Shown: piece by piece, positions 6,444 through 7,679 of the stretch
Position numbering within the stretch: the stretch's first letter is position 1
How the letters are laid out: every line of letters begins with the position of its first letter
Origin: a virus
Lineage: Duplodnaviria; Heunggongvirae; Uroviricota; Caudoviricetes
Strand: one strand, 5' to 3'
IMG/VR virus record: IMGVR_UViG_3300021254_000001
DNA length: 64,000 nucleotides
Program-made: the position numbers and the translations under genes
The notes under the pieces: generated by a model
Told to the model about the DNA's origin: nothing
Databases searched by the model: none
The model's input: only the letters and a program-made list of their open reading frames with translations

Positions 6444-6614
6444 GGGGAGGCTTAGAGCTCCCTATCTTTTAACCCCTATGATCGAAACAAATGTTCTTAT
6501 ATGTGTGTCGCGTGTGTGGGTATTTTACCCCGGCGTGTGTTAATTTTACCCCGGCGTTGTTCACTTTTTGAATTACGCTGATCAAATAAATTTTAAAGAA
6601 AGGAGATGGTTTAA

Positions 6615-6794
6615 ATGACACAACAAGAAATAAAAGCAGAAAAAATTAAACAAGCATACAAAAGTGATTATACAATAAAAGAAACAGAAAGAGATGGAGA
6701 TATATACTTAAATATGTCAAAAGGTACTGATTTTTTCAATCGTGAATTCATAACAGCAGTTATACACGGCGATGGTCATGTTGATTGGTATTAA
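6615..6794 (+). CDS. hypothetical small protein (59 aa)
   Basis: RBS AAAGGAGATGG. Followed by a perfect 9-bp hairpin at 6816-6842. Confidence 0.25.
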   Translation: MTQQEIKAEKIKQAYKSDYTIKETERDGDIYLNMSKGTDFFNREFITAVIHGDGHVDWY

Positions 6795-6901
6795 AAAGTG
6801 AACAGGATCAAGAATGCCAGGGGAGATATTCACACTCCCCTGGAAAACTTTCACATTCGTGAATTCTGTTCACTTTTGAGATGAAAGGAGGTGATTTTTT
6901 T

Positions 6902-7108
6902 ATGGACAAATTCAATAGTTATGTTATATGTTTAAACACAAATATAGTATATCAAGGAGTACGAGAAGCGGAACGAGTATTAAATATAGACCATAGTAAT
7001 ATTTCAAAAAATTGTAGAGGTATTCGTAAGTCAGTGAACGGATTACAATTTCAATATTTTGATCCGTTAAAACATAAAAATTATAAATATTATGACCCCA
7101 GTATATAA
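6902..7108 (+). CDS. stand-alone DNA-binding module resembling the C-terminal domain of NUMOD4/HNH homing endonucleases
   Basis: VICLNTNIVYQGVREAERVLNIDHSNISKNCRG...GLQFQY parallels VQCIETGIIYPSILDAG...GGYHWKY at the C-termini of the HNH genes. RBS AAAGGAGGTG. Confidence 0.4.
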   Translation: MDKFNSYVICLNTNIVYQGVREAERVLNIDHSNISKNCRGIRKSVNGLQFQYFDPLKHKNYKYYDPSI

Positions 7109-7679
7109 TGACCCCAGTGTGTGCGTTTTTTCCACCACGTGTATGTTTAAATTTTACCCAGCTTGTTCACTTTCGACAAAATTTTACAAAAATTTTTAAT
7201 TTTTAAATAAAATTTAATCCCTATGCTCATAAACATTTGTTCGTATATATGCGTATATTTTGGACAACAGGTTTCTTGGTGTTGAGAATGAATTTTTTGG
7301 GGTCTGTGTTGCTTTGCTTTCTAGGTGTTGCTCTGCTAAAAATTGTTTATAAAAAAGCAAATCAACAACACGTTTTTTGTTTTTATAAATATATTTTCCA
7401 GATTTCTGTTCAGTCGAATGATATAATCTTGAATAAAAGCAGGGCAATCGCAGGTCAACGGGGTCTATCCTTACTCTACCAACAATGACATACTGTGATG
7501 TTGCTCTGCTGTTGATAAAACATTAACTTCTCTATATATTTTTAGTAGATAGATAAAGTCAATAATGTGTAAAAATATATGTACTATGTCAAAATCAACA
7601 AAGCAAATCAACGCAATCGCTCAAACCCTTGATATATCAACGTTTTTTAACGTTGCTTAGCTTTTTTTAATACTACTAC

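Follow-up and report, generated by a model that had tools for sequence, protein, structure and literature searches.

A repeated TGTTCAC motif in the genome of an uncultured phage is identical in its core to the type 1 iteron of P4

The motif and its copies in the window

We analyzed a short motif that recurs in intergenic DNA of the IMG/VR virus record IMGVR_UViG_3300021254_000001 (Duplodnaviria; Heunggongvirae; Uroviricota; Caudoviricetes). The stretch analyzed comprises 64,000 nucleotides and is referred to as the window. The motif is the 11-base sequence (C/T)TGTTCACTTT, with (C/T)TGTTCAC as its core. The window phage has a GC content of 33% and sigma-70-type promoters, and encodes a DNA polymerase, a helicase and an exonuclease, as well as a primase-helicase of the P4 family with 802 amino acids (14600..17008, - strand), the predicted C-terminal winged helix of which is encoded at ~14618-14875. 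Intergenic copies of the motif were found in three clusters, located at 6.5-7.2 kb, 13.7-14.5 kb and 44.6-45.0 kb.

In the first cluster, two-part site 1 (ATTTTACCCC-GGCGT-TGTTCACTTTTT; 6543..6569, + strand) contains the forward copy TTGTTCACTTTTT (6557-6569) and is conserved among relatives. It is preceded by a terminator (6444-6463) and followed by the ribosome-binding site (RBS) of a small hypervariable early gene (6615-6794). The degenerate first unit of a 21-bp tandem, ATTTTACCCCGGCGTGTGTTA, was read directly at 6522..6542 (+ strand) and consists of a CCCC box, with TTTTACCCC at 6523, and a decayed TGTTAA core; the doublet upstream of site 1 recurs in relatives. The single copies TCCTGTTCACTTTTT (6793..6807, - strand) and TTCTGTTCACTTTTG (6864..6878, + strand) form an inverted pair with the former as its left arm, and the latter lies 24 nt upstream of the start of a NUMOD1-like gene (6902-7108). 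This pair could form a long hairpin, as 6790-6882 was found to fold with z = -7.7 relative to shuffles. Two-part site 2 (AATTTTACCC-AGCT-TGTTCACTTT; 7150..7173, + strand), with its forward copy at 7163-7173, is followed directly by TTCGACA and is conserved in all tiers of relatives; its spacer is 2 nt shorter in the window than in the relatives.

The second cluster contains two copies of TTCTGTTCACTTTTT on the + strand, which form the left (13745..13759) and right (13882..13896) direct repeats of a 137-nt insertion/deletion; the left copy abuts the RBS of a C5-methylase gene. A degenerate copy with one mismatch, tCGTTCACTTTT (14521..14532, + strand), lies between the gp171 gene and the hairpin that comes after the primase gene, and relatives carry a perfect GTGAACA at its place. 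In the third cluster, ATCTGTTCACTTTCT (44668..44682, - strand) is located 35 nt upstream of the start of an HNH gene (44632, - strand) and is conserved in the relatives L101-L120, while TTCTGTTCACTTTTT (44737..44751, + strand) lies at the junction between modules. The inverted pair at 44664-44756 folds with z = -4.6 relative to shuffles. The copy TTTCTGTTCACT (45007..45018, + strand) is found just past the stop of the last late-operon gene (45055, - strand); it reads CTGTTCACT without the T run, and the equivalent copy of the relatives is TTTTCTGTTCACTTTTT.

Copies within genes were found at 1318..1327 (- strand; TGTTCACTTT, antisense to the gene), 4562-4571 (-), 15920-15927 (+), 24448-24457 (-) and 55924-55933 (+). 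Most of them are antisense to the gene in which they lie, and the copy at 24448 was kept in L010 despite unrelated flanks. A sequence-only reading of the window had listed the intergenic copies, both reverse copies and both two-part sites, all of which we recovered, the intergenic copies within a few bases of where it had placed them. It had also reported coding copies, which were found at 15920 and 24451, and had missed those at 1318, 4562, 55924 and others.

Motif counts were compared with 100 dinucleotide-preserving shuffles of the window, and for each pattern the observed count was reached in none of them. CTGTTCAC was found 15 times with 0.91 expected, which bears out the enrichment over shuffled controls that the sequence-only reading had proposed to look for. 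The corresponding numbers were 31 and 7.35 for TGTTCAC, and 12 and 0.36 for TGTTCACTTT. The exact TTTTACCCC box occurred four times with 0.44 expected, each time between genes; no enrichment was found in the window when one mismatch was allowed in this box. Our gene calls were deliberately generous and left 9.5% of the window as non-coding DNA. Half of the TGTTCACTTT copies were located there (6/12, or 8/12 once two over-extended open reading frames were corrected; binomial P = 4e-4), and the location of the four TTTTACCCC copies had P = 8e-5. Twenty of the 31 TGTTCAC copies fall within the first 16 kb of the window.

An information profile was built from 129 non-redundant copies taken from the window and 18 primase loci. 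Its consensus is Y-TGTTCAC-TTT, with the three trailing T present in 83%, 71%, and 65% of the copies; position 8 is thus T in 83%, with a few copies having C instead (12103, 46425). The two-part subset is the source of a weak CC at -9/-8. The profile was flat outside -9..+10, and no partner element at a fixed distance was found within 45 nt on either side; therefore, the motif has no -10/-35 partner. Single copies in the window showed no orientation rule relative to the downstream gene (four co-oriented, six anti-oriented), in agreement with the independence of gene direction noted earlier. GTGAACA was located on the sense strand for 21 of the 31 TGTTCAC copies, a ratio of 21:10. The purine skew of sense strands predicts a ratio of ~3.4:1, so no strand-specific selection at the RNA level is needed, and the strand bias of the coding copies was set aside as evidence.

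Conservation in relatives and overlap with late promoters

Genomes related to the window phage, of ~75-78 kb (~77 kb), were reached through the primase, the capsid and other proteins. Many of them are in IMG/VR, and further relatives were found in bins of metagenome-assembled genomes of Lachnospiraceae, Clostridia and others. Close cultured relatives were not found by megablast and tblastn against a phage collection. A literature search by motif sequence returned primer matches only, and a profile search for more distant primase relatives returned the same clade only, with identities of at least 59%.

The motif and its TTACCCC-N5-TGTTCAC form were unchanged and found at the same positions across relatives with 59-99% primase identity, and the sites were constant while the flanks and even the neighbouring genes changed between relatives. 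Both TTACCCC-N5-TGTTCACTTT sites were kept in every tier of relatives. Site 1 was found at its position in L001-L011, L018, and L269, with small early genes downstream that differ by lineage, and site 2 always preceded a non-coding region rich in iterons. In nearly all relatives a motif copy was located directly after the hairpin following the primase-helicase gene. Enrichment was regional: loci surrounding the primase gene held 6-9 TGTTCACTTT copies with ~0.1 expected, while loci surrounding the capsid gene held essentially none.

Where the replication module meets the end of the late operon (44632-45054 in the window), two to four perfect ATTTCTGTTCACTTTTT copies were found in every relative examined. 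The arrangement of these copies varied between tandem at 13, 17 or 20 nt, inverted at 3-4 nt, inverted at 58-60 nt around a hairpin, and direct at 75-76 nt. In L112 and L116 the left junction copy has the direct orientation, by which the stem is lost and the sequence kept. That the sequence is conserved, but neither its orientation nor the stem, argues against an RNA structure. A scan of the window against Rfam gave tRNAs only at the gathering threshold and nothing in 6440-7745. A small hairpin in the junction, TAAGAC[GCAAAGATGA]GTCTTA (44693-44714), was found with its loop reverse-complemented (TCATCTTTGC) in some of L107, L109, L112, and L116; the change is a 10-bp inversion between the arms of an inverted repeat.

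The sequence-only reading had argued for the site of a dimeric regulator rather than a promoter. The protein-site part of this is in agreement with the lack of a fixed-distance partner and of an orientation rule, and with half-sites that bracket a -10 box as described below. The dimeric part did not hold, as most strong copies are single, asymmetric 11-mers, and the pairs are direct or inverted at varied spacing. Among the relatives, direct repeats were found at 13, 17, 20, 75, and 137 nt, and inverted repeats at 3-4, 14, and 58-60 nt.

A perfect inverted pair, TGTTCA-N14-TGAACA (60350-60381), had previously been noticed upstream of the capsid gene. We found it to lie inside the near-consensus sigma-70-type capsid promoter, TTGACT-17-TATAAT (60388-60360, - strand), which reads TTGACT-attc-TGTTCA-attttgt-TATAAT-a-TGAACA-gaa (60350..60388, - strand). 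The half-sites bracket the -10 box, one being located four bases past the -35 box and the other directly past the -10 box, and both lack the final C of the core. Relatives down to ~88% capsid identity retained one or two of these promoter sites, some with the site orientation reversed or with a full TGTTCACTTT overlapping the -35 box; relatives at 81% capsid identity or less had no sites in the capsid promoter. The leftward structural (late) operon has its promoter just outside the window, and this promoter carries TGTTCA-N14-TGAACA around the -10 box in L095, L096, and L100; in L095 (7047-7112) it was found to have the same architecture as the capsid promoter. An early promoter adjoining the late-operon promoter has TGAACA in its spacer. 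The inverted arrangement of half-sites over the late promoters is operator-like.

The 5' leader of the capsid gene (60205-60345, - strand) contains the box GAAATAGATATGTCCTGGGG and, after it, a long hairpin (60219-60303), both of which were conserved down to 67% capsid identity. Searched against Rfam, this leader gave generic hairpin (microRNA) matches only.

Neighbouring repeats and candidate binding proteins

Site 2 is followed directly by an AT-rich stretch of 18-22% GC (7174..7261), which is absent as such in L001, and then by six lineage-specific iterons GTTGCTYTGC in both orientations (7308..7661). The iterons lie upstream of the RHH gene promoter (7680-7708), at which the non-coding region ends. 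The GTTGCTYTGC array is a motif family distinct from the TGTTCAC motif.

The recognition helix of the primase winged helix was found in two forms. The form MKEKAFSMKLGK is paired with GTTGCTCTGC repeats after site 2 (window, L001, L008, L009, and L095-L099), and the form M(N/S)ERAFARNL(N/A)K (MNERAFARNLNK) with GGTTGCTCCAA or TGATTGCTCCA (L011, L018, and L269). Since the iteron variant co-varies with the recognition helix, the array region 7308-7661 (compare L011 6300-6700, and L269) is probably an initiator-bound origin.

The primase-helicase matched Pfam DUF5906. Against TIGR01613 it had E = 2.8e-18 with 65.8 bits, which is below the curated cut-off of 108.7, and BLASTP against P4 alpha gave 23% identity over 181 amino acids of the helicase core (E = 5e-6). 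The N-terminal 450 amino acids, where a Toprim (DnaG-type) primase domain would be expected in a P4-type protein, had no Pfam or NCBIfam match, and PHROG 864 'DNA primase' spans residues 58-612. The C-terminal winged helix was assigned from a structure model and fold searches.

Three binders had been proposed by the sequence-only reading. Unlike the invariant motif, the RHH protein differs strongly from one lineage to another; its N-terminal beta-strands read KLTIELD, RINITIA, and RLTITIP in the window, L009, and L011, respectively, and it is the different iteron GTTGCTYTGC that adjoins its gene. The sigma-region-4-like protein (97 amino acids, weak similarity) was found in lineages that have no promoter sites, and was not found within 10 kb in lineages that have them. 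Both proteins are thus poor candidates for the binder. The third candidate, the helix-turn-helix (HTH) protein (36501), has an HTH of the transposase/resolvase type. A 'ParB-like' protein was rejected, being weakly similar to DUF262/GmrSD_N.

The protein gp171 (13962-14444, - strand) is encoded right after the primase gene, beside the conserved motif copy. It is represented by 572 clusters, the best 120 of 572 having at least 76% identity, and was present wherever the motif was enriched and missing from L267 and L268. The model of gp171 is all-helical with a basic N-terminus. We found no family match, no fold match at E < 2, and no recognisable DNA-binding fold for gp171, and it was rejected both as binder and as small terminase on account of an all-helical model without a fold match.

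Further repeats were observed next to motif copies. Directly after the copy at the module junction lies a 10-bp-periodic array, TTGTCG/TTGTCA/TTGTCGAA/TTGTCA plus one inverted copy (44753..44800), so that four TTGTC(G/A) repeats have a spacing of exactly 10 bp; a related sequence is found at 7172-7178. The array is conserved in relatives, and in L095 (14880-14900) TTCGACAcggTTCGACA directly follows a motif copy. Next to it, the CCCC box of the two-part sites occurs as an inverted pair, AGGGGTAAAAT...ATTTTACCCCT (44815..44877), with a -10-like TGCTATAAT in the loop and a fold z of -2.3 only. The 137-nt element (13760-13896), bounded by 19-bp direct repeats, contains GGTTGCACG-type iterons and a CTCAAACC..TTGATATA box. 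Its repeats match an origin-like region after the primase gene of L268 (7400-7660; 48% identical) and partly 7620-7656 of the window.

Known host boxes (parS, Spo0A, LexA-like) were compared with the window and checked where possible. The TTGTC(G/A) geometry resembles that of tandem Spo0A '0A boxes', which hints at a spore-forming host. The Spo0A box TGTCGAA was not enriched in the window (4 found, 6.2 expected); two of its copies abut motif copies. AACA(A/T)(A/T)TGTTC boxes were observed upstream of both two-part sites (6486-6496, 7232-7242) and at ~5880 in L011, where the box is GGAACAAATGTTCG, a near-perfect Gram-positive LexA (Cheo) box. This LexA-like AACAWWTGTTC was found in two copies only, and GAATGCCAGG was not enriched. 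A ParB-parS centromere was rejected, as the 16-bp palindrome TGTTNCACGTGNAACA had no match with fewer than three mismatches and gave 5 matches with 3.1 expected.

Comparison with known systems and explanations of the motif

The replication origin of satellite P4 carries an annotated 'ori type 1 repeat', and all 16 of these repeats read as (C/T)TGTTCACC or close variants, (C/T)(T/A/C)(G/T/A)TTCACC-like. The core (C/T)TGTTCAC of the window motif is identical to the core of this iteron. Thirteen of the 15 TGTTCAC copies of P4 are located in ori or crr, the latter lying directly downstream of the alpha gene. The P4 alpha protein consists of a primase, an SF3 helicase and a C-terminal winged helix, which binds the type 1 repeats (PMC4234260; PMC2777425). 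The window resembles P4 in having several clusters kilobases apart with copies in both orientations, in having one cluster directly downstream of the primase-helicase gene, and in encoding a P4-family SF3 primase-helicase with a predicted C-terminal winged helix. It differs from P4 at the eighth base and tail (TTT in the window, C in P4), in the CCCC box added to some sites, and in copies that are also scattered in genes and over late promoters. In addition, the C-terminal domains have no detectable sequence similarity, the recognition-helix variation of the window clade tracks another repeat, and this clade is of Firmicutes type with 33% GC and 77 kb, compared to 11.6 kb for P4. In a scan of IMG/VR for three tandem TGTTCAC copies we found at least 120 loci, and 39 among the matches listed carry alpha homologues. 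Two alpha homologues among the matches listed, at 58% and 41.5% identity, still have TGTTCACC beside the gene.

Also among the matches listed is L184, an unrelated uncultured phage with 6-7 TTGTTCACTT(G/T) copies at an 11-bp period. The gene that contains the array (TGTTCACTT) encodes a Phage_rep_org_N replisome organiser and neighbours an SSB gene. The inside of a rep gene is the classic place for origin iterons, and such iterons are embedded in the replisome-organiser genes of Firmicutes phages (lambda O / SPP1 G38P type). L184 repeats the same extended motif as the window; however, the window copies form no regular tandem array and do not lie inside an initiator gene, and no homologue of the L184 Phage_rep_org_N protein was found in the window.

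Other systems share single properties with the motif. Plasmid Rep/iteron systems (F RepE, R6K pi, P1 RepA) have direct iterons at the origin and inverted partial iterons as operator. The asymmetric sites, and the combination of iterons with inverted partial iterons over a promoter, are found here as well, but the operator-like pairs lie on late structural promoters and not on the promoter of the initiator itself, and their binding is putative. The P1 C1 repressor has asymmetric 17-bp operators dispersed over the genome; these resemble the motif in being asymmetric, single or paired, dispersed and promoter-overlapping, but their sequences are unrelated to it, and we saw no lysogeny module in the window. 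In T4-type phages, promoter-early stem-loop (PeSL) cassettes are joints for modular shuffling. Similarly, small variable early genes in the window lie between short, hairpin-bearing regulatory sequences, which are conserved and mark insertion/deletion boundaries, except that the repeated unit here is not a sigma-70 promoter.

A role in replication was absent from the sequence-only reading, and it is to replication that the closest known counterpart, the P4 type 1 iteron, points. We consider it likely that the motif is a genuine, conserved protein-binding DNA site. More tentatively, we favour an iteron-like site with two roles, one in replication-control regions and one, as inverted half-sites, as operator on late promoters. 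(C/T)TGTTCACTTT would then be the double-stranded DNA recognition site of a single DNA-binding protein that is sequence-specific, conserved and encoded by the phage. Strong single copies, some with a TTACCCC box one helical turn upstream, would organise replication-origin or replication-control complexes in the three intergenic clusters, which adjoin AT-rich DNA, lineage-specific iteron arrays and the region just downstream of the primase-helicase gene, as the TGTTCACC type 1 iterons do in P4 ori and crr. The weaker inverted half-sites, 14 bp apart, cover -10/+1 of two sigma-70-type late promoters, and the same protein could therefore hold late transcription down there, following the plasmid paradigm of iteron and inverted half-iteron operator. 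Being conserved and repeated, the motif would also serve as a joint for the gain and loss of gene cassettes.

Several observations speak against this two-role reading. Comparison of the primase C-terminus with the origin-binding C-terminus of P4 alpha by hhalign gave no similarity, and the winged helix is a very common fold. TGTTCAC was identical across both recognition-helix groups, the helix forms tracking the GTTGCT-type iterons instead. Since the recognition helix co-varies with the GTTGC-type iterons while TGTTCAC is invariant, the textbook binder probably reads the other repeat. Judged from these sequences, the winged helix most likely reads the GTTGC-type iterons, and TGTTCAC would be read by something more conserved; the primase winged helix is disfavoured as the TGTTCAC reader by this covariation test, which is indirect. 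The most divergent primase relatives, L267 (62%) and L268 (48%), had no TGTTCAC. Lineages without TGTTCAC include the contigs JAAWKD010000002.1 and CAKOTZ010000004.1. After their primase genes we found AT-rich DNA with GTGCTAC-type repeats in L267 and TGCAACC(G) repeats in L268. Furthermore, ~20 copies over 16 kb, many of them in genes, are more than an origin needs, several copies abut RBSs, and some overlap core promoters, in equally good agreement with a role in transcription alone.

Such a purely transcriptional operator, by which a conserved phage regulator would time early, packaging and late genes and the resemblance to P4 would be coincidental, is the main rival, and we regard it as somewhat unlikely. 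It would account for the half-sites that bracket the -10 boxes of two late promoters, for the one in the early-promoter spacer, and for the strong copies that follow terminators and closely precede RBSs, namely site 1, 6864, 13745, and, in relatives, the one upstream of gp171. The invariance of the motif while the primase winged helix varies is in line with it, as is the extreme conservation of gp171, which always has a copy next to it and was missing from both lineages without the motif. It leaves aside the exact match, in a genome encoding the same initiator family, of an 8-mer to a documented origin iteron, the array inside the rep gene of L184, the consistent proximity to AT-rich DNA and iteron arrays, and the many copies inside genes far from promoters; moreover, gp171 has no recognisable DNA-binding fold. 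That the motif is itself a phage-specific promoter, in which TTACCCC-N5-TGTTCACTTT or the single element is read either by the host RNA polymerase after a phage factor has redirected it or by a phage polymerase, with a start just downstream, seems improbable. It would fit that sites 1 and 2 are always oriented toward the genes downstream, are preceded by a terminator and lack a good sigma-70 promoter in their vicinity, and that one helical turn separates their two boxes, a spacing also seen in sigma-54 and T7/T3-type promoters. Sigma-54, T3, and SigB-like readings were rejected, as spacing or orientation does not fit. Single copies have neither an orientation rule nor a -10/-35 partner, some lie 0-10 nt from an RBS, too close for a leader to fit, we saw no gene for an RNA polymerase among the annotated proteins, and the sigma-region-4-like protein does not track the sites.

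Motif copies were repeatedly found at the boundaries of gene cassettes. Direct copies bound the 137-nt element, which is absent in L001-L005 and L017, and the NUMOD1 cassette (6878-7170; gene 6902-7108) is absent in L001/L095, where a single motif copy remains. Relatives without the HNH gene at 44174-44632 carry two tandem copies there, and the copy at 4562, within the gene 4282-4674, lies at a mosaic junction for which all four combinations of left and right flank occur. With at least nine HNH genes in the window, this could suggest a target of an HNH/NUMOD endonuclease or a recombinase that defines the ends of mobile cassettes. We find this hardly probable, as copies are missing from the borders of most HNH genes in the window, the promoter-bracketing pairs and the CCCC partner box are left unexplained, and any conserved repeat is expected to become a recombination joint as a side effect. 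An element acting in RNA, with inverted pairs forming long hairpins as bidirectional terminators or RNase III sites, would fit the two pairs that fold far better than shuffles and have A/U tracts on both sides. It is very improbable when set against the mostly single copies, the loss of the stem in L112 and L116, the unrelated interiors of the two hairpins and the lack of an Rfam family match. Equally remote is a packaging signal consisting of sites for the small terminase subunit (cosB/pac-like): the copies at 13745-14532 do lie between the gp171 and methylase/TerL genes, near the split large-terminase gene, and gp171 is all-helical and of about small-terminase size, but there are three separate clusters plus the promoter sites, gp171 matches no terminase family or fold, and the contigs of relatives end at different places.

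The two-role reading has a stronger version, in which one conserved protein reads a P4-like iteron both at the replication regions and over the late -10 boxes, and the replication state thereby gates capsid transcription. We hold this to be quite unlikely. If true, it would represent a coupling of replication to late genes through an iteron/operator pair, and not through the sliding clamp as in T4, in uncultured Clostridia-type phages, with an iteron that doubles as a portable joint for the exchange of early-gene cassettes. In metagenomes from rumen and gut the clade is abundant (gp171 protein clusters by the hundreds, ~77-kb contigs by the dozens), and none of its members has been cultured. 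The conserved 11-mer provides a handle for locating origins and regulatory regions in its genomes, a testable link of Firmicutes-type phages to the well-studied E. coli satellite P4, and a candidate mechanism by which late transcription would be tied to replication. The motif also illustrates how a putative conserved binding site can be the seam for modular gene exchange.

The HNH/NUMOD genes of the window were located at 2421-2933, 3406-3864, 5640-6050, 9299-9802, 11052-11546, ~22165-22712, 38146-38610, 41388-41903, and 44174-44632. Several of them are paralogous (repeat families D1-D5), and the NUMOD1-like gene at 6902-7108 is free-standing and encodes 68 amino acids. The large terminase (9916-12191, - strand) is split into an N-terminal ATPase (11745-12191) and a C-terminal nuclease (9916-10704), which are separated by the HNH endonuclease gene at 11052-11546; this could be an intron- or intein-like insertion or a two-piece terminase. 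Among the small open reading frames and an HNH gene at 38048-40972 lie seven tRNA genes (Met, Gln, Thr, Glu, Ser, Tyr, and Lys). The C5 cytosine methyltransferase gene apparently starts with TTG at 13731 (13656-13731, - strand), and a one-base frameshift near 13700 splits methylase motif I (FSGIG), which could reflect a pseudogene, a sequencing error or programmed slippage.

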